Assembly: GCA_016839365.1 (NCBI GenBank) | Contig: JAEOUH010000016.1 | Location: 1 to 20,524, forward strand | Length of the DNA: 20,524 nucleotides | From: Candidatus Hermodarchaeota archaeon | GTDB taxonomy: Archaea; Asgardarchaeota; Hermodarchaeia; Hermodarchaeales; Hermodarchaeaceae | Direction of reading: 5' to 3' | Part shown: in pieces, positions 11,707 through 20,426 of the stretch | Layout: every line of letters starts with the position of its first letter | Position numbering within the stretch: position 1 is the first letter of the stretch | Made by a program: the position numbers and the translations under genes | The notes under the pieces: model-generated | What the model was told of the DNA's origin: nothing | What the model saw: only the letters and a program-made list of their open reading frames with translations | Database searches by the model: none

Positions 11707-12162
11707 TTACTCTTCCCATTCCACTAATCCCGCTTCTTTCAAGAGCATTTGAGTATCCTCATGAATTTCATCACGAATTTCTATCAGTTCTTCTCTCGAG
11801 AACCAGTTGCCCTCTCCCACATCAGAGGCAGGTTTGAACTTTCCTTCCTTGACCCTAGCAACTGCATCAAGATATAGAATATGCTCTTGGATGGTTTCAT
11901 CAGCACTCCGAATGATTCGTTCCATTGGACGAACCCAAGTAACTATCTCAATCTCCAATCCGGTTTCTTCGCGGACTTCTCTTCGCACACCATCTTCGAG
12001 GGACTCACCAAATTCGAGGCGACCACCAGGGCAGATGTACTTGTCAATCCAAAATCCGCCTTTTTGCGGGATGTGTTTCACAAGCAGTACTCGGAGTTCT
12101 TCATCAAGGATAACAGCGCCAACACAGGGTACAAATTGATTCACCATCTTATCAACATCCAT
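11707..12162 (-). CDS. Nudix hydrolase
   Basis: Complete Nudix box GGRLEFGESLEDGVRREVREETGL. Confidence 0.93.
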   Translation of the reverse strand: MDVDKMVNQFVPCVGAVILDEELRVLLVKHIPQKGGFWIDKYICPGGRLEFGESLEDGVRREVREETGLEIEIVTWVRPMERIIRSADETIQEHILYLDAVARVKEGKFKPASDVGEGNWFSREELIEIRDEIHEDTQMLLKEAGLVEWEE

Positions 12163-12273
12163 GAGTATTCAGAGCATTCCCTGAGAAGAGAAACCCTTAA
12201 ATCCATTCAAGGCGGAACGCCCCTTAACAGCTATATACTTCATGACTATAAAGTAATCTCGGGGTCGTCTACT

Positions 12274-13341
12274 ATGGGAAAAATCAAGATTGCCCTTGCC
12301 GGTATCGGTAATTGTGCGTGCAGCCTAGTTCAGGCTCTCCATCATTATGGTCACCCCAGCAAGGCTGCAGAAAGTGCTGGACTAGCCCACCCCATGATCG
12401 GCAACTATGCAGTGAGTGATATTGAAGTCGTCGCCGCCTTCGATGTAGTCCAAGAGAAAGTCGAGAAAGACCTCAGTGACGCTATTTTTGTCCAACCAAA
12501 CAATGCACCCAAGTTTACCGATCTTCCCACTTCAAAGATTATTGTGCAACGTGGTCCCACCTTGGATGGGCTCACATCAAACCTCGAAGAACTCGTCACT
12601 GAAAGTAATACCAAACCCGTTGATATTGCCCACGCCCTCAATGAAAGCAAAGCACGAATCCTGGTTGGGCTTTTACCCAGTGGTGCTAGTGAGGCTGTGT
12701 ATCACTACGCCAGTGCAGCGATGGACTCTGGGTGTGCCTATATCAACACTTCTCCTGTGATGTTGGCTAGCGACCGGAATTGGGCTCAACGATTTAATGA
12801 TACTCAATTGCCTGTAGTCGGTGATGACCTTATGAGTCAGATTGGTGCGACAGCGTTGCATCGAGCGTTGCTTGATTTCTTAGTGAAACGTGGGGTCAGG
12901 ATCCAGGAAAGCTATGCACTCGATGTCGGCGGAGGTACTGAATCCCTTGAATCACTAACACGTGCCCGTGATCAGAAACGGTCATTGAAAACCAATATCG
13001 TCTCAAAGGAAGTTCCCTATCAAGTGCCTATAACTGCTGGCTCAACTGATTATGTGTATTTCTTGGGTAACCGTCGTGAGAGCTACTTCTATCTCCGTGG
13101 TCAGTATATTGGAGATGCTGATTTCAAAATCGATCTCCGCCTTGTCAGTGAAGATGCTCCGAATAGCACCTCCATTTTGCTCGATGTTATACGTGGAGTC
13201 CAGATCGGAATAGACCGAGGGTTCACTGGACCCATCGATGCTGTGTGTTCCTATGGCTTCAAGGCTCCTCCACGACCCTATCCTCTTTCCTTGAGTGAAA
13301 CTATCTTTGAACATTTCATTCGAAGCACTCGCCCGGTCTAG
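12274..13341 (+). CDS. Myo-inositol-1-phosphate synthase (Ino1) homologue, active-site divergent
   Basis: IALAGIGNCACSLVQ, VAAFDV, RGPTLDG, GDD.SQ.GAT.HR, DAPNS and DRG..GP match the actinobacterial/archaeal Ino1 type. The likely start is ATG 12274, since the 11881 extension overlaps the Nudix gene in antisense. Confidence 0.85.
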   Translation: MGKIKIALAGIGNCACSLVQALHHYGHPSKAAESAGLAHPMIGNYAVSDIEVVAAFDVVQEKVEKDLSDAIFVQPNNAPKFTDLPTSKIIVQRGPTLDGLTSNLEELVTESNTKPVDIAHALNESKARILVGLLPSGASEAVYHYASAAMDSGCAYINTSPVMLASDRNWAQRFNDTQLPVVGDDLMSQIGATALHRALLDFLVKRGVRIQESYALDVGGGTESLESLTRARDQKRSLKTNIVSKEVPYQVPITAGSTDYVYFLGNRRESYFYLRGQYIGDADFKIDLRLVSEDAPNSTSILLDVIRGVQIGIDRGFTGPIDAVCSYGFKAPPRPYPLSLSETIFEHFIRSTRPV

Positions 13342-13418
13342 CTGGTAATCCCATCTAGTGCTCTTTTATATGTCATGGCGTGCCACGCATACTCCAAGAT
13401 TGTTGGAGTGTGCATGTA

Positions 13419-14303
13419 TTGCGAATTGGTATTGCCCTGAGCCGCGAGCGACCAAATTGGCCCGTTCGTCGCCTGATTCGGGCATTAGAGGCTAAAGGTT
13501 GTGAGGGCGTTACCTTCTGTCTGAAGAACCTCTCACTGCATATGGATTCGGAGCAGATGCAGTTTCTCTTGCCACGCCGTCGCCCGTTAGATGTGAATGG
13601 AATTATCCTCCGGAGCATTGGGGCTGGGTCAACTGATCAAATCACTAGTCGGATCTCGATGCTGGAAGCTCTTGAACTAGCTGGGGTTCGAGTCTTCAAT
13701 CGGGCTTATAGTCATCGACGTGCAAAAGATAAACTTGCCACCTTGGTATGGCTGGCACATCACGGGATTCCCATTCCTCCAACAACGCTAACCGAGCGAC
13801 TGGCTGTGGCTGTAGCTGCAACGAAACGGTATCACGACATTGTTTCAAAACCTCTGCGGGGTTCTCAGGGCCAAGGCATTTTCAGATTACAGGACCCTGA
13901 TCTGGCGTTTCGTCTTTTCAAAATACTCCAAACAGCGAATCAAACCCTCTTGATTCAGCGGTTCATCGAAACTCCAGCTCGTGATATCCGTGCATTTGTT
14001 GTTGGTGAGCGTGTAATTGGGGCGATGTACCGGTATGCGAAGCCGGGTGAATGGAAGACGAATATTTCAAGAGGAGCTAAACCGAAAGAATGCCCAGTAT
14101 CTGCTGAGCTCGAGAAGCTAGCCTTAGGTGCCAGCAAGGCCTTGGAAATGGACTTCGCCGGGATTGATATTCTGGAGGCAGACAATAAACTTGTGGTAAG
14201 TGAGGTAAATGCTGCACCGAACTGGAGTGGATTACAAAAAGCCACAGGCGTCGATGCATCTGAAGAAATTATCACCTATATTTTGAAAGAACTGAAAAAA
14301 TAG
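13419..14303 (+). CDS. RimK-family ATP-grasp alpha-L-glutamate ligase (MptN/CofF-like)
   Basis: DKL, KPLRGSQGQG, IQRFI, DIRAFVVG, WKTNISRG, GIDIL and EVNAAP. Start re-called to TTG 13419 (MRIGI...) behind GGAGTG (13405-13410), with TATA-like TTTTATAT at 13364-13371. Confidence 0.9.
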   Translation: MRIGIALSRERPNWPVRRLIRALEAKGCEGVTFCLKNLSLHMDSEQMQFLLPRRRPLDVNGIILRSIGAGSTDQITSRISMLEALELAGVRVFNRAYSHRRAKDKLATLVWLAHHGIPIPPTTLTERLAVAVAATKRYHDIVSKPLRGSQGQGIFRLQDPDLAFRLFKILQTANQTLLIQRFIETPARDIRAFVVGERVIGAMYRYAKPGEWKTNISRGAKPKECPVSAELEKLALGASKALEMDFAGIDILEADNKLVVSEVNAAPNWSGLQKATGVDASEEIITYILKELKK

Positions 14304-14832: not shown

Positions 14833-15000
14833 ATGGAGCGAGAACTCACGAAAACCAAGGTTCTGCTAACATTCTCAATTCTGGATTTGTCAGCAGCTCT
14901 GGGCGAGTGTGGCATACCCAGAATTTTGGAAACGGTAACCAGACTTGCTGTTCTGCTCTCATCACCCCAGACTCAAACAGAAAGGAGAGAAAGATTATGA
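14833..15000 (+). CDS. 55-aa upstream ORF with ATGA overlap onto the GH3 start (not in ORF track)
   Basis: Encodes MERELTKTKVLLTFSILDLSAALGECGIPRILETVTRLAVLLSSPQTQTERRERL*. Stop TGA 14998-15000 overlaps ATG 14997-14999. Confidence 0.45.
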   Translation: MERELTKTKVLLTFSILDLSAALGECGIPRILETVTRLAVLLSSPQTQTERRERL

Positions 15001-16571
15001 TTTGGTCGCTCGCATCAAAAATCCTTGAACGTATGAAACTCACACCATTTCTTAAGACAATTGAAGATCCTGTGGCAACGCAAGAACAACGACTTCACGA
15101 GCTACTCCGTTATGCGGAAGGAACAGCCTATGGCAAGCGTCACCAATTCAGCGACATCCGCAGTTATGAAGATTTTGTGAACAACATCCCAATCAACCAA
15201 TATGCCGATCTCCAACCATATATTCAGCAGGAACTAGACGGAATCAATAACACGCTGTATCCTGAACCCATCCAGGTGGTCTTGTCAACGAGTGGGAGTA
15301 CAGGCAAACCGAAGCTTATCCCCCAGACAGCGACTTGCTTGAAATCACTCAAACGTCTTCGGATCATGTCCTTTGCGGCCGCAGCAAGAATCCGACCATT
15401 CCTGCATGGGAAAATCCTCGTCATGGTTGCTCCTGCAGTGTACACCAAAATTGGTGATTGGGAGGTCGGTTACGGAACTGGGCAAGCGATGAAGGGCGGA
15501 AGCCGACTTATCAAAAGTAAAGTCATACCAACGACCGACGTCTTTGACATCACCGATTGGGAACTCAAATTCCATGAAACGATTCGCCAAGGTCTAAGCA
15601 CTCCCAAAGTCACCGCATGTGGTGGAATAACCTCCTTCATACTCGCACTCCTTCGCCGCATCAAATATGAGTCCTATGATTGGCTAAAGACCGATCCTAC
15701 CCTGTCCCCAGAAACACAGCGGCGACTCCAAGCGGCTCTCATCGATGAAGGTACTTTAGACATCAGAGGGCTATGGCCAGACCTTTCAGTGATTTTTCAT
15801 GGCGGGGTTGTTCGCGATTTATACGAACCGATGATCCATGATCTTGCAGGTGATGTTCATATCCATGAAGTTTACGCTGGGACAGAGGCCTGTTACGGAA
15901 TTCAACTATTTGAAGACCATGTGGGTGTTGTCCCGATGATGGATGACATTGTGTTCGAGTTTGCTAGTATGCAGAAAGACCCACTAGCCCCAGATACTGA
16001 GACAATTCCCCTAGGCGAAGTGAAGAAAGACACCCCCTATCGTATCATCGTTACGACCCCCAGCACCTTATGGCGGTATGACTTACAGGATGTGGTGATG
16101 TTTACCTCTCTAAATCCACTCACCCTCCGGTGCCTCGGCAAAAGTACAAACATTCTGAATTTGAGCGGTGAAAAGGTATCTGAACAACATATTAGCGCTG
16201 CTCTTAAAATCACAAGTGAGGAGCAAGATGCGTTAGTCCGCGATTTCGTTGTCGCTCCTTTAGTGAGTCCAACTAGTAGTTGTTATCATCTCTTCGTCGA
16301 ATTCAATCGTGCCCCCCAGGATCTAGGAGGGTTCACGAGGGGCTTCGATTCAGCACTCAAAGAGATGAATCACCTCTACTGGGAAGTTCGCACCGCAAAG
16401 ACTATCGGTCCTGCGGTCATTCACTCGGTTCCTACAGGACGCTTCGATGATTACGAATTCAACAGACTACAATCCCAACAATGTGCAATTGGGCAAACGA
16501 AAATGCCACGAATTACAACCATTGACCAAGCACAAGAACATCTCATTGTCGCAACTGCGACTGCTCCCTAA
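14997..16571 (+). CDS. GH3 (auxin-responsive promoter) family acyl acid-amido synthetase-like protein
   Basis: P..TQE..L..LL....T.YG, the P-loop STSGSTGKPKLIP, YAGTEACYG, WRYDLQDVV, NLSGEKV and GQTKMPR. Start is ATG 14997 behind AAGGAG (14982-87). Confidence 0.88.
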   Translation: MIWSLASKILERMKLTPFLKTIEDPVATQEQRLHELLRYAEGTAYGKRHQFSDIRSYEDFVNNIPINQYADLQPYIQQELDGINNTLYPEPIQVVLSTSGSTGKPKLIPQTATCLKSLKRLRIMSFAAAARIRPFLHGKILVMVAPAVYTKIGDWEVGYGTGQAMKGGSRLIKSKVIPTTDVFDITDWELKFHETIRQGLSTPKVTACGGITSFILALLRRIKYESYDWLKTDPTLSPETQRRLQAALIDEGTLDIRGLWPDLSVIFHGGVVRDLYEPMIHDLAGDVHIHEVYAGTEACYGIQLFEDHVGVVPMMDDIVFEFASMQKDPLAPDTETIPLGEVKKDTPYRIIVTTPSTLWRYDLQDVVMFTSLNPLTLRCLGKSTNILNLSGEKVSEQHISAALKITSEEQDALVRDFVVAPLVSPTSSCYHLFVEFNRAPQDLGGFTRGFDSALKEMNHLYWEVRTAKTIGPAVIHSVPTGRFDDYEFNRLQSQQCAIGQTKMPRITTIDQAQEHLIVATATAP

Positions 16572-16652: not shown

Positions 16653-17327
16653 TTACGCTGGCGGGCTTTGGGTTGGTGGTGGTAATTTTGTCCTCTCAGA
16701 TTTGATGTTCAGACCAGCCCAAAGGATGATCAGGCCTAGTATTTCGATAACTTCTGAAACCCAGACTAATGTGATAGGGAGAAATACCTTGAGAATTTGT
16801 CCAAGAATCGTCACCGTTCCACCGATGCTGATTATCAATCCATGAACCTCGGTTAGCCTTCTCATCATCCATGCAGCGAAGAATGAGACTGTAAACCCAA
16901 CGTACACTACTAACATAAAGGGAATAAGCAGTAGCCGTAGGAGCAGTTCTGTAGGGGTCAAGGCAACTATAAGGAGCACTAAGATTATGTAAATGATCGG
17001 AATCATATCTCTGAGTCGTCGACGCTCACTCACCCAAATGAGTAAGGTTGGATATAAGAAGAAAGCTAAACTCATCGCCGTAAAAGCAGCTCGGATTTTG
17101 TATGTAAACAAGTCAAAGGGGGGAAGGAGACCTGAATGAATTAGCACATCGACGGATTCTGCTCCTGCCAGGATGAAAAACCCTATTGCGAAAAGAAAAG
17201 GGATATCCGTATAGAAACGGCGTTCAGCACGAAACCATCGAAAGAGGAGAAGAAATCCCAACGCGAAGAGAATGATAACTTTCGCGAGTTCTAATAGCCA
17301 TAATGGATCCGGAGAGGGAAATTGCAT
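16653..17327 (-). CDS. Hypothetical integral membrane protein, about 7 TM helices
   Basis: Seven hydrophobic stretches with short loops and a Pro-rich C-tail. ATG 17327 follows a GGTGA SD, and the track's GTG 17339 lies inside that SD. Confidence 0.8.
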   Translation of the reverse strand: MQFPSPDPLWLLELAKVIILFALGFLLLFRWFRAERRFYTDIPFLFAIGFFILAGAESVDVLIHSGLLPPFDLFTYKIRAAFTAMSLAFFLYPTLLIWVSERRRLRDMIPIIYIILVLLIVALTPTELLLRLLLIPFMLVVYVGFTVSFFAAWMMRRLTEVHGLIISIGGTVTILGQILKVFLPITLVWVSEVIEILGLIILWAGLNIKSERTKLPPPTQSPPA

Positions 17328-17716
17328 GAGAGAATTCACCAGAGAGGTTGTGTGGCATCAGTAATTCGTTTTAGCTTTTAAGCATTTAAACTCCCATTAT
17401 TCCTAGCTAGCCTTCGAATTCTGTCTTAATTTCTGGGCGTGATGGAGTAGACAGGTGTTTATCAGGCATTATCGGGTCAGGCTTGTTTGATGGTTTTTTC
17501 GTCTCTTGATCCTCGTGATAAAAGGACAACGACTTTGCCGGGAAATCGGCGCCCAGTCCGCCCTTGTCATTGAATGCGACGGATGGCACTGGGAACGCTA
17601 TCATAGAATACCACAAGATTACACTCTAACACGTCCAGCCCCTCTTCTCCAACGTTGGTGGCGATCAATACCAGATTTGGTTTCTTTATATACCGTATGC
17701 CATGGTCGGATTGGGG

Positions 17717-18667
17717 CTAGCTCTCTTCCCGCTGGAAGATTTCTGCCTTTTCCAACAACTCGAAAACAAAGGCGTTAGTTTCTGATTGGTCTCGTAAATA
17801 GGATTTGTGCAGACCAGTGAAATGGTGGCGAATGTTATCGAATTGGGAAACAAATGTCGGATTAGGGGAAAGGTTACCCACTAAAAGATCGAGTTCGGTT
17901 AACCGATTCCGAGCATGATTAGTGAGGTTCTGAAGACCAGTAAAGGTGAGATAGTCTGTCTGACCCAAGGTGAGAATTGCTCGAGAGGCATCCATGAGGA
18001 GAAAGGAAAGCGACCAGCGGGCCTCGATGGCTTCCGGATAGGCTGGAAGTGGCAACTCGTAGAGTAGGCTAGTATGCTGATAGGCAACTCCAGTCGTGAA
18101 TCCACGTTCGATTAGCAGTTGGTCTCCCAAATACGCGCGAAGACGGAAAATGGTTTCCAGGACCAAGGAGAAGATTGTCGACTCATTATCTTCGGGTTCA
18201 TTTGGGATATGCGGGTTCAATACCATTATGGGGTCTAACCTGATGGGCTGGCACTCCAGATACTGGGGGAGGAGCATCTCGGGGGTGGTCACAGGCATGT
18301 AATAGGGAAATTCGTCTTGAGCATGGGCATAGAATTGGGCAAAACCCAGTGGCAAGAGATAGTCAGAGTCGTGTCGGCTGGGTGGTTGCAATGGATCAGC
18401 CACTAACACGCAGGTGTCGCGGTTCGACCACAGTGGCATCCAAGCCATGTGGGGCCAAAGAGGGTCTTCTTCATCATCGAAGGTCATTGAGACAACACGT
18501 AGCCGCATATCTGTGCAAAATGCATCTTGGATATGCTCAATTGCGGAGCGATATTGTAAAGTTACTTCCCTGTAACCAGTGGTCATGAGCATTTGGTCAA
18601 GGGCCTCATCTCGAAGGCCATAACCTTCGCTGAGCCCTTCAAGTGGTAAGAGGATGCTTGGTTCCAT
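17717..18667 (-). CDS. Hypothetical soluble protein (316 aa)
   Basis: Long ORF with an upstream TATA-like TTTAAAAA on the minus strand near 18695-18703. No family confidently recognised. Confidence 0.8.
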   Translation of the reverse strand: MEPSILLPLEGLSEGYGLRDEALDQMLMTTGYREVTLQYRSAIEHIQDAFCTDMRLRVVSMTFDDEEDPLWPHMAWMPLWSNRDTCVLVADPLQPPSRHDSDYLLPLGFAQFYAHAQDEFPYYMPVTTPEMLLPQYLECQPIRLDPIMVLNPHIPNEPEDNESTIFSLVLETIFRLRAYLGDQLLIERGFTTGVAYQHTSLLYELPLPAYPEAIEARWSLSFLLMDASRAILTLGQTDYLTFTGLQNLTNHARNRLTELDLLVGNLSPNPTFVSQFDNIRHHFTGLHKSYLRDQSETNAFVFELLEKAEIFQREES

Positions 18668-18750: not shown

Positions 18751-20034
18751 CTACAGCCATTCCTTCAGGATAATAGCAGTTTCCATGTCGATGACGCCGT
18801 TGATTTCTTCGATTTCATGAAGGGTCTTTACACGGGTGCTGGTGAGGGTTCGAATCTCAATGCGAATAAGATAGTCCCAGCGACCGGACACCGCAGAGAC
18901 ACAACGTACACCATGGATTCGGCGTAATTGGGCCATGATGTCTCCAGTTCCAGGTCGTATCTTCACGAACACGAATCCACGAAATGTGGCAGTTGATAAG
19001 GCGACAATGCCGGCGATGACAAAGATGGTTCCGGTGAGTTTCAGCATCCAAGACAAGAAATCAGTGGCCGGAGGATTAAACACACCAGGGAAGAGAAAAG
19101 CCCCCATCATCGTCAGTGGAATCCCAATAACTATCGAGATAGAGCCAACACTTTGGACCACCGACATTTTACCTCGACCAAGTGCCTGAAGGTATGCAAC
19201 CAATGAAAAGAAGGTTAGCATAACCGGAAATAACAACCAGCCCCAAACCAAGGGGAATTGAATGACAAGGAAGCCAATTACCTCTGGAGTGATGAATGGA
19301 ATCATGAATAACGTCATGGTAAGATTAAGGAAGAGCAGCATCCACAACCGTAGGTTTAACGAGTCTGTCGTCGTTTTAGGCCGTATCTCCGTTCGTTTTG
19401 TTCGGCTTTGAAAGAAGACACTAATTGCTACACCTCCAGCCCAGATGGTGATGACAAACAATAAGAGTGTGGGATCGAAGAACCCTACCGGTGTGATGCC
19501 CACCAGGAGAACCCCAAAGGTTATGGCAAGGATGGAAAGGGCTTCGATTGAACTTGGCCAATCACGAATTAAGATTAGGTCGCCAATCATCAGAAAAATT
19601 AGGGAGAACCGTGAGAAGGGGATAACTGCGGAGATGTCACTGCTATGACCTGCTACATAGTAGTAGGCGAAAGTAGAAATTCCAGCAAATACTCCTGCGA
19701 GGATGAGATCAAAGAATATTTTTCGAGAAGGTAACGTGATATGGAAAAAGGAGCTGTCGACCTTTGTTCCAAGGCTTTGACGACGAGTTCGATTGGTGGG
19801 AATGCTTAGAACGAAGAGTAAAATAACAGTGAATAGGAGTGCGAACCATTGCTCCGCCAGAGCGAAGGCTACCGATGAGAAGATATTAGTGAGAAAGGGA
19901 TGAAAGAACACTCGGTAAATGAAGACATCGGAGAATACAGAGAAAGCGAACAAGACTCCCGAAATTAGAGCCAGGAAATAGAAGACGGTCTTACTTCGTT
20001 GGGAGCCAACTCGTCGCTCCATAGCCGCCCGCAC
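18751..20034 (-). CDS. EamA/DMT-superfamily transporter fused to a C-terminal Lrp/AsnC ligand-binding (RAM) domain
   Basis: About 10 TM segments in two repeats with DMT-like motifs (YYYV...DISAVIP..R...LIRD.P; YLQALGRGKMSVV). The last ~75 aa, GFVFVKI...GV..VSAVSGRWDYLIRIE...I.GV...ETAIIL, form a RAM fold. SD AGGAGTGG lies upstream of GTG 20034. Confidence 0.85.
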   Translation of the reverse strand: MRAAMERRVGSQRSKTVFYFLALISGVLFAFSVFSDVFIYRVFFHPFLTNIFSSVAFALAEQWFALLFTVILLFVLSIPTNRTRRQSLGTKVDSSFFHITLPSRKIFFDLILAGVFAGISTFAYYYVAGHSSDISAVIPFSRFSLIFLMIGDLILIRDWPSSIEALSILAITFGVLLVGITPVGFFDPTLLLFVITIWAGGVAISVFFQSRTKRTEIRPKTTTDSLNLRLWMLLFLNLTMTLFMIPFITPEVIGFLVIQFPLVWGWLLFPVMLTFFSLVAYLQALGRGKMSVVQSVGSISIVIGIPLTMMGAFLFPGVFNPPATDFLSWMLKLTGTIFVIAGIVALSTATFRGFVFVKIRPGTGDIMAQLRRIHGVRCVSAVSGRWDYLIRIEIRTLTSTRVKTLHEIEEINGVIDMETAIILKEWL

Positions 20035-20063
20035 TATTACCCACTCCTTTCTTCCCTAGCATC

Positions 20064-20303
20064 TTAGAATTCTTTTTCGACGATGGACGTTGTAATATTT
20101 TCTAAACCCTGGATTTTTCCGATTTGATTCACAGTGAGTTCATAAAGGGCCTCCAGGTTTGGTAGATCGAAGCGAGCGATGATATCGTAATCACCTGTGG
20201 TAACAGCAATACTGGTAGCCGTCTCAAGCTCGCGTAGGGCTTTAACCACTTTATCGATATGTCCCATGAACACCTTACACATGACAAATGCGGAAACTGT
20301 CAT
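20064..20303 (-). CDS. Stand-alone Lrp/AsnC ligand-binding (RAM) domain protein, no HTH
   Basis: 79 aa: AFVMCKV...VVKALRE...TTGDYDIIARF...IGKIQG...TTSIV. SD GGTGA lies upstream. Confidence 0.92.
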   Translation of the reverse strand: MTVSAFVMCKVFMGHIDKVVKALRELETATSIAVTTGDYDIIARFDLPNLEALYELTVNQIGKIQGLENITTSIVEKEF

Positions 20304-20426
20304 CTATTTCACCATCAGTTTTTCTTGTTACTGCCTTCACCTATCTTGCTGTGATTAAAGCCTTTCTTCTTCATTGCTCACCGCAAGCTACTAAAAACCC
20401 CAATATCCGCGTGAATCAGAACCACG

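Follow-up and report, generated by a model that had tools for sequence, protein, structure and literature searches.

The stretch of DNA analysed here, hereafter the window, comprises 20,524 nucleotides (positions 1 to 20,524 of the forward strand) of contig JAEOUH010000016.1 from the Candidatus Hermodarchaeota archaeon assembly GCA_016839365.1 and carries two neighbouring minus-strand genes close to its right end (Table 1). The first codes for a small stand-alone RAM protein (the free copy), and the second for a fusion protein in which a membrane carrier of the drug/metabolite transporter (DMT) superfamily is followed by another RAM domain (the fused, or tethered, copy). The two genes form a module consisting of a DMT-superfamily secondary carrier with a cytoplasmic RAM domain and a dedicated free RAM protein, which is compact and amounts to about 500 aa in total. 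Database homologues of the fusion begin at the ATG codon at position 20022, and the protein would then be 423 aa long; the spacer between the genes measures 29 bp if the GTG codon is taken as the start and 41 bp if the ATG is. The genes are probably co-transcribed. The initial annotation of the window, made from the sequence alone, had placed a 79-aa RAM gene lacking a helix-turn-helix (HTH) domain 29 bp upstream of the fusion gene on the same strand, which is confirmed by the coordinates and by the match to PF01037, and the motifs it quoted for the two domains, TTGDYDII and VSGRWDYL as well as TSIVEKEF and TAIILKEWL, are present in the translations.

Both proteins match PF01037 (RAM, the Lrp/AsnC ligand-binding domain), whose Pfam gathering cut-off is 25 bits. 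The scores are 48.1 bits for the free copy (residues 14–75) and 32.9 bits for the fused copy (residues 357–425), and the family was also matched by all 19 fusion homologues aligned. No family match to an HTH domain was found in either protein in Pfam or NCBIfam, and the regulator models of NCBIfam cover only their C-terminal RAM part, with scores of 16–24 bits against cut-offs of 180–250. Judged by domain content, the two proteins are not Lrp/AsnC-family transcription factors. In the AlphaFold2 (AF2) model of the fusion, residues 351–422 have the beta-alpha-beta-beta-alpha-beta arrangement with predicted local distance difference test (pLDDT) values mostly of 80–89. This part was aligned by VIA-align with TTHA0845, FL11, Grp, STS042 and DM1 with Z of 12–13.6 and a root-mean-square deviation of 1.4–1.9 Å over 73–80 residues, so that the C-terminal 75 aa do model as a RAM domain, as had been expected. 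The junction between transmembrane helix (TM) 10 and beta-1 contains no indels in the 19 aligned homologues.

For the free copy, the RAM identity comes from sequence only. It can be aligned over its full length with STS042, TTHA0845 and DM1, and with its 79 aa and a RAM domain as its only domain it falls within the usual description of stand-alone RAM proteins (about 75–90 aa, RAM domain only). Its closest solved relative by sequence is FL11/PH1519, the TTGDYD motif being common to both. The two RAM domains of the window had been called alike, which holds at the family level, i.e. in profile comparison, but not in direct comparison, as BLASTP of the free against the fused RAM gave no alignment and the identity between them is about 24% (our own count on MAFFT rows).

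The membrane part had been initially annotated as an EamA transporter, from a family that exports amino acids and other metabolites. A carrier of the DMT fold with ten TM helices is what stands of this description, but the label of an EamA amino-acid exporter would be over-specific, since PF00892 (EamA, gathering score 28.2 bits) has no match in the window fusion protein even at E ≤ 1; a scan with the two hidden Markov models (HMMs) proposed at that stage thus detected AsnC_trans_reg (PF01037) in both proteins but not EamA in the window protein. EamA is weakly matched by 6 of the 19 close homologues (E ≤ 0.1), and a distant member of the fusion family, P0082, reaches 38 bits, which is above the cut-off. 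The EamA HMM covers either half of the membrane part in distant relatives, namely residues 6–144 in P0082 and residues 167–311 in P0073. The AF2 model (m4410a8d82bbf), which was built on 19 homologues and has a mean pLDDT of 68.5 and a predicted TM-score (pTM) of 0.62, contains ten long helices between residues 11 and 347. In VIA-align the top structural matches of this region are all DMT carriers with 250–290 residues aligned, including LicB (7paf; Z 14.8 over 266 of 278 residues), SLC35B1 (13.5), PfCRT (12.7), Vrg4 (12.5), TPT (11.2) and YddG (5i20; 11.0), with the reservation that Z values below about 13 can be unspecific for helical bundles. The best Foldseek matches are the CMP-sialic acid transporter (CST), LicB, Vrg4, SLC35B1 and TPT.

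Because of the EamA-matching relatives, the ten-helix AF2 model and the structural matches to LicB, SLC35B1, TPT and YddG, the window protein is assigned to the DMT superfamily, being, by transitive homology and predicted fold, a divergent DMT-fold carrier that the EamA HMM leaves unmatched. The presence of a C-terminal RAM domain on a DMT-fold carrier with about ten TM helices, as originally proposed, is confirmed by the PF01037 match, the ten-helix model and the structural matches taken together. An internal repeat of 5+5 TM helices was not detected by hhalign, which gave a probability of 0.5% for the N-terminal half against the C-terminal half with 68-sequence profiles. Counted on the model helices, about 20 Lys and Arg residues lie in the N-terminus and in the even-numbered (inside) loops versus 1 in the odd-numbered (outside) loops, and this distribution on the predicted helices shows both termini, and with them the tethered RAM domain, to be cytoplasmic. 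As a separate observation, several proteins of about 340 aa (P0080, P0084, P0091–P0093, P0096, P0097, P0100, P0103 and P0106) resemble the membrane part with 24–29% identity; neither a RAM domain nor any Pfam family was found in them, and for P0091 there was no orthologue in 151 Asgard genomes, its only matches being fusions, weakly.

A search for close homologues of the fusion resulted in 42 clusters of 350–434 aa, nearly all containing PF01037 and named by their depositors as Thorarchaeota, Promethearchaeota or Hermodarchaeota. Since an exhaustive search of 1.84 billion representatives gave only 66 clusters, the fusion family is small. The form present in the window, hereafter type 1, was detected in 140 of 400 Asgard genomes (E ≤ 1e-30), almost always in a single copy, including 17 of the 18 other genomes of the window's own family and none of the 135 genomes of the largest Asgard family, f9; metagenome-assembled genomes (MAGs) being incomplete, such absences mean that the gene was not found in the genomes searched. 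For the analysis of gene neighbourhood, 86 type-1 loci were collected, 35 by genome search and 51 as named loci from GTDB representatives, which after accounting for overlap correspond to 68 distinct pairs. Represented among these loci are Hermod-, Thor- and Heimdall-named MAGs as well as other Asgard families. In every one of the 86, a free RAM gene adjoins the fusion gene on the same strand with a spacer of −44 to 42 bp; it is located upstream in the Hermod-named and Heimdall-named loci and in those of the other families, and downstream in all the Thor loci.

Two variants of the fusion deserve mention on their own. In the Asgard family f27 the fusion is 463–485 aa long. The one locus read (L113 1590-3002 (+), genome G196) retains an upstream free RAM gene, and the additional residues of its fusion form a long basic stretch inserted into the cytoplasmic TM2–TM3 loop and not a second RAM domain. 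In genome G006, which belongs to the window's genus (L020/L050, contig C21 10724-12011), the fusion is split into a membrane part (profile positions 1–309) and a RAM part (314–415) in overlapping frames, which reflects either an assembly frameshift or a real split form.

A second subfamily of fusions (type 2) was reached through two 72.5-bit matches of the type-1 free-RAM profile, both of them in f9 and located beside a type-2 fusion. The type-2 fusions of f9 have a length of 436–437 aa, match EamA with 39.8 bits and the RAM family at the C-terminus with 25.1 bits, and lack the membrane residues D36, E164 and D224, which are invariant in type 1. They were found in 76 of the 135 f9 genomes, and an 81-aa free RAM gene lies 5–33 bp downstream of the fusion in all 11 assessable loci. 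Either fusion form (type 1 or 2) is thus harbored by 216 of the 400 sampled genomes of Asgard archaea, the group from which eukaryotes are thought to have arisen. Distant fusions were also assigned by depositors to Nanohaloarchaea (homologue P0077) and Woesearchaeota. On a metagenome contig of the latter, a DPANN lineage, an 81-aa RAM gene overlaps by 4 bp the start of a 378-aa EamA-RAM gene (L087 3759-5137 (+)), whose product has 24% identity. Among the type-2 loci (L098 and L101–L112), L098 2277-3860 (-) has a CBS-domain protein encoded next to the pair on the opposite strand.

The conservation of the fusion and of the gene pair, which had been named as a check of the first proposal, therefore holds in 86 of 86 type-1 loci, in 11 of 11 loci of the second subfamily and in the single Woesearchaeota locus. 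The window's genome contains approximately 11 RAM matches in 2.2 Mb, and a RAM gene would be expected to adjoin a given gene by chance in about 1% of cases, compared to the 98 of 98 assessable loci in which this was seen. Related genomes are not independent of each other, and the independent events in this series are the swap of gene order, the differing flanks, the two subfamilies and the DPANN occurrence.

The free copies themselves were characterized with a profile (A3) built from 18 of them, with which 61 Asgard genomes were scanned. Matches at 99.7–123 bits numbered 35, each adjoining a type-1 fusion (35 of 35 genomes), and the next best match scored 72.5 bits. Other stand-alone RAM genes are numerous in the same genomes and score 72.5 bits or less with A3. 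By these scores, the free RAM is a distinct "partner" family dedicated to the fusion; it is also a slowly evolving one. In the phylogenetic tree of RAM domains, the free type-1, fused type-1, free type-2 and fused type-2 copies form one clade each (SH-aLRT 93, 95, 96 and 99, respectively), and the internal topology of the free and fused type-1 clades is parallel; the deep branching order is not resolved. Pairwise sequence identities were calculated for the free copy, the fused RAM and the membrane part and are correlated with one another (r = 0.88–0.92), the free copy being the most conserved (42% versus 33% identity among distant pairs). The correlated divergence shows that these parts were inherited together as a unit, with the limit that correlation alone does not prove contact.

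The strongest indication of how the two copies may be related functionally comes from their ligand sites. In the structure of Grp with glutamine, D102 and the backbone of the G99..D102 loop of one dimer hold the amino group of the ligand, while T132 and T134 of the neighbouring dimer hold its carboxylate, the equivalents of these threonines being described as conserved in all known family members (PMC2504300). The corresponding positions were mapped by HMMER alignments to FL11, STS042 and DM1 and counted in all pairs. The GxxD loop is present in both copies of the window (Table 1). At the T-x-T strand of free type-1 copies, position 70 is T in 51 of the 68 pairs (75%) and V or I in 16, with I in the window, and T72 is retained in all 68. 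In the fused type-1 copies, position 417 is V, M or I and T in none of the 68, T419 is retained in 64 (94%), and the L3 loop is one residue shorter. In type 2 (n = 11), the free copy has the G and D of the GxxD loop and both Thr of T-x-T in 100% of cases; the fused copy has the G and D in 100% too, with the first Thr never present (I, V or L instead) and neither the second (I or L).

The GxxD loop is therefore kept by both copies and T-x-T is eroded in the fused ones, with the same asymmetry in both deep subfamilies, which suggests a composite site split between the copies. As only the free copy can donate an intact carboxylate strand, an interface formed by two fused copies would not contain a complete site. 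This complementary erosion in two deep subfamilies, read from the alignments, is our main argument for a heteromer and lends sequence-level support to the co-assembly of the free and tethered copies.

With moderate confidence, we suggest that the free and tethered RAM domains form one split sensor, in which a metabolite bound at their interface would switch DMT transport directly. RAM domains are obligately dimeric, their dimers associate into larger assemblies, ligands binding between the dimers shift the assembly or the conformation, and the stand-alone RAM protein DM1 and the full-length FL11 were found to form hetero-octamers in vitro (PMC2995911). In a similar manner, the free and tethered RAM domains would assemble under the carrier like the RAM dimers of Lrp/AsnC proteins, with the free protein supplying the partner subunits; a homo-octameric disc of tethered copies would probably not be allowed in a flat membrane by the short tether. 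A cytoplasmic metabolite, most likely an amino acid or a close derivative, would bind at the free–tethered interface in a split site to which both copies could contribute the GxxD loop for the amino group and only the free copy an intact T-x-T for the carboxylate. The resulting association or rearrangement of the RAM domains could then pass through the tether of about 3 residues to TM10, and a change in TM10 would bias the inward/outward alternation of the carrier, turning transport on or off post-translationally. The outcome may be either the activation of an exporter, which would serve as an overflow valve, or the inhibition of an importer, i.e. trans-inhibition, for which MetNI is a precedent. 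The wider claim that the module represents an ancient archaeal system in which a heteromer-dependent split site directly gates a DMT carrier, occurring in two Asgard subfamilies and one DPANN locus, is put forward as a tentative one, which we regard as possible rather than probable.

Several points weigh against this picture. The free copy of the window reads I-T-T, so the argument from an intact T-x-T is weaker here than across the family, and the mapping of the site is a sequence alignment to Grp, FL11 and DM1 and not a structure of the pair. Amino-acid binding is absent from some archaeal RAM proteins (PMC2995911). Correlated divergence is to be expected from co-inheritance alone, and no Rosetta-stone form, in which both RAM domains would be joined to the carrier (DMT-RAM-RAM or RAM-DMT-RAM), was found in the 42 close and 66 representative clusters. 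The model of the membrane part is middling (mean pLDDT 68.5), and Z values of 11–15 for a helical bundle carry the tool's own caveat.

A different role for the free copies would be that of a messenger and not a gate. According to this explanation, the carrier would act as a transceptor that senses or carries a solute and whose tethered RAM domain captures or releases the free RAM, which after release would join full-length Lrp/AsnC regulators, as DM1 joins FL11, and alter transcription. A stand-alone RAM protein and a full-length regulator are known to form hetero-octamers in vitro (PMC2995911), the window's genome encodes several full-length Lrp-type proteins as well as other stand-alone RAMs, and the slower evolution of the free copy is what would be expected of a protein with more than one binding partner. 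However, the free-RAM family is sharply set apart from the other RAM proteins (99.7 bits or more versus 72.5 or less) and occurs only beside the fusion, the surroundings of the pair include no conserved gene for an Lrp-type regulator, and the near-absent linker to TM10 resembles mechanical coupling more than a docking site. We consider such a signal relay unlikely. Another reading, offered in the initial annotation, is that the transporter recruits Lrp-family regulators to the membrane; the data speak neither for nor against it.

The erosion of the site in the fused copy can also be read in terms of structure or assembly without sensing. The free RAM would then cap the tethered beta-sheet and keep the carrier monomeric, or stabilise or dimerise it, and the GxxD loop would serve folding or the interface. 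The eroded ligand site and the shortened L3 loop of the fused copy are consistent with this, as is the view that several archaeal RAM proteins do not bind amino acids (PMC2995911), and a single tethered domain, given the obligate dimerisation of RAM domains, has to find a partner sheet. It is difficult, however, to explain by folding alone why D40/D387 and T72, which correspond to the residues contacting the ligand backbone in Grp, are kept in 94–100% of the sequences across distant lineages and in both subfamilies, and a purely structural cap appears quite improbable to us. Finally, it is very improbable that the two genes are functionally independent and share only an operon or promoter, with the tethered RAM homo-oligomerising between carriers and the free RAM acting elsewhere, since, common as stand-alone RAM genes are in these genomes, the adjacency in 98 of 98 loci despite the order swap, the differing flanks, the two deep subfamilies and the DPANN occurrence, the partner-specific free-RAM family found only beside the fusion and the complementary erosion of the site halves all speak against it.

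If the free and tethered domains do act as one split sensor, a concrete role would be assigned to one family of stand-alone RAM proteins, and metabolite sensing by RAM domains would be seen to act after translation on a transporter. RAM domains have been characterized mainly in transcription factors and as orphan "demi" proteins. The physiological role of the stand-alone ones has been described as unclear (PMC2995911).

To compare the neighbouring genes, the flanking open reading frames (ORFs) of 90 aa or more, a length that the free RAM does not reach, were clustered across the Hermod, Thor and Heimdall loci. Apart from the fusion itself, the only ORF cluster common to all three groups is an antisense shadow ORF lying within its gene. 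The other flanking genes differ between the groups and give at best hints as to the substrate. The Hermod loci have as neighbours the 316-aa protein, the 228-aa membrane protein, the GH3 protein and the RimK-family ligase listed in Table 1. The Thor loci possess a RimK-family ligase and a DUF7121 protein upstream and an ABC/ABC-2 pair downstream, and in the Heimdall loci an AstE/AspA-type deacylase is encoded downstream of the fusion in 11 of 12 cases. The invariant residues of the 316-aa protein include H73, H99, H115, D84 and E171; no Pfam or NCBIfam family was found for it, and its AF2 model (pLDDT 73.7) gave no convincing fold match (Foldseek E ≥ 0.5; best VIA Z 5.8). In 11 Hermod and 16 Thor loci a RimK-family ligase gene lies no more than a few kb from the pair, though not always in the same arrangement, for instance at 13431-14339 in L039 and about 2.3 kb upstream of the fusion in Thor loci. 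The ligase or the deacylase near the pair may point to glutamyl or N-acyl amino-acid metabolism, though neither is conserved across all the groups. Together with the kinship of the free copy to FL11, which responds to Lys, Arg and Gln, the nearby glutamate-ligase and deacylase genes are weak hints only as to the ligand and the substrate.

Elsewhere in the window's genome, a 419-aa frame with a weak RAM match on contig C46 was considered as a second transporter fusion and rejected, as it is rich in zinc ribbons and contains a complete C-terminal Lrp HTH and RAM. Contig C46 (L100 2340-3563 (-)) codes for a 407-aa protein in which a Cys-rich, zinc-ribbon-like N-terminal half is followed by a complete Lrp/AsnC regulator with HTH and RAM, an unusually long form of Lrp.

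Table 1 Features of the RAM–carrier gene pair and of its neighbours, with positions in the window
Feature	Position	Strand	Basis or remark
Candidate archaeal TATA box TTTAAT (tentative), 51–56 nt 5' of the ATG of the free RAM gene	20354..20359	minus	By eye
Free (stand-alone) RAM protein, 79 aa, no HTH, no TM segment	20064..20303	minus	PF01037
GxxD loop of the free RAM, G37-D-Y-D40, equivalent to Grp G99..D102	20184..20195	minus	G37 and D40 in 68/68
I70-T71-T72 of the free RAM, at the T-x-T position (Grp T132/T134)	20088..20096	minus	Alignment
Intergenic spacer, 29 bp, containing the purine-rich GGAAAGGAG	20035..20063	minus	Sequence reading
Fusion protein, 427 aa from the GTG start	18751..20034	minus	ORF read
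Membrane domain, residues 1–347, ten TM helices, divergent DMT-superfamily fold	18994..20034	minus	AF2 model m4410a8d82bbf
Tethered RAM domain, residues 351–425, about 3 residues after TM10	18760..18984	minus	PF01037 and AF2 model
GxxD loop of the tethered RAM, G384-R-W-D387, kept	18874..18885	minus	G in 68/68, D in 64/68 type-1 fusions
M417-E418-T419 of the tethered RAM, eroded T-x-T with the first Thr replaced by a hydrophobic residue	18778..18786	minus	Alignment
316-aa protein, 83 bp downstream of the fusion	17717-18667	minus	Conserved there in 16/17 Hermod-type loci, in no other group
228-aa multi-pass membrane protein without a family, following the 316-aa gene	16653-17339	minus	Conserved in 15 Hermod-type loci
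GH3-family protein, flanking the RimK-family gene	14907-16571	plus	Best NCBIfam match lyso-ornithine lipid synthetase OlsH, far below cut-off
RimK-family alpha-L-glutamate ligase	13380-14303	plus	TIGR00768, 209 bits versus cut-off of 143
Ino1-like protein, flanking the RimK-family gene	11881-13341	plus	302 bits versus 638-bit cut-off of the mycothiol Ino1 model

A search for RAM–transporter fusions in the literature library used here returned no paper, and in NCBI these proteins are named only "Lrp/AsnC ligand binding domain-containing protein" or "DMT-like permease". The type-2 subfamily, the DPANN locus, the gap in the partner-profile scores and the quantified asymmetry of the ligand site are new here.

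Compared to known systems, the module has the PF01037 domain and its fold in common with the RAM assemblies of Lrp/AsnC proteins and with stand-alone RAMs, represented by FL11 and DM1 from P. horikoshii and by Grp (ST1022) and STS042 from S. tokodaii. In the known RAM proteins the ligand site is formed between dimers from the GxxD loop and the T-x-T strand, and the FL11–DM1 hetero-octamer is a known case of a free RAM protein co-assembling with a RAM-bearing partner. Unlike the Lrp/AsnC systems, the module is devoid of an HTH domain and its RAM-bearing partner is a membrane carrier and not a DNA-binding protein; furthermore, the tethered copy has lost T-x-T in part or wholly.

The DMT carriers, including YddG/EamA, LicB, TPT, SLC35 and Vrg4, possess ten TM helices and have their termini inside, as is predicted for the fusion, but the window protein differs from the characterised ones in having no EamA match and no internal repeat detectable by hhalign. 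YddG/EamA-type carriers are amino-acid exporters, and SLC35 and Vrg4 are nucleotide-sugar transporters. We know of no characterised DMT carrier that contains a ligand-binding domain in the cytoplasm or is accompanied by a soluble partner of its own, nor, to our knowledge, has direct allosteric control by such a domain been characterised for the EamA/YddG, SLC35, TPT or LicB carriers.

The C2/ACT-like trans-inhibition domain of MetNI, the GlnK(PII)–AmtB pair, the RCK/KTN rings and the CBS domains of OpuA and MgtE may be regarded as functional analogues, in the sense that the module would work like them and not that it belongs with them. In MetNI, AmtB, RCK and OpuA/MgtE a small-molecule sensor, ferredoxin-like or similar, on the cytoplasmic face reports a metabolite level directly to the transport cycle. 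The module differs from all of these in both the domain family of the sensor and the class of the carrier. It is known here from sequence, and the free copy is encoded by a separate, diverged gene and is not the product of an internal start as in RCK. With this difference, the RCK/KTN rings of K+ channels also combine tethered and free copies of one domain, as the free and tethered RAM domains under a DMT carrier would do.

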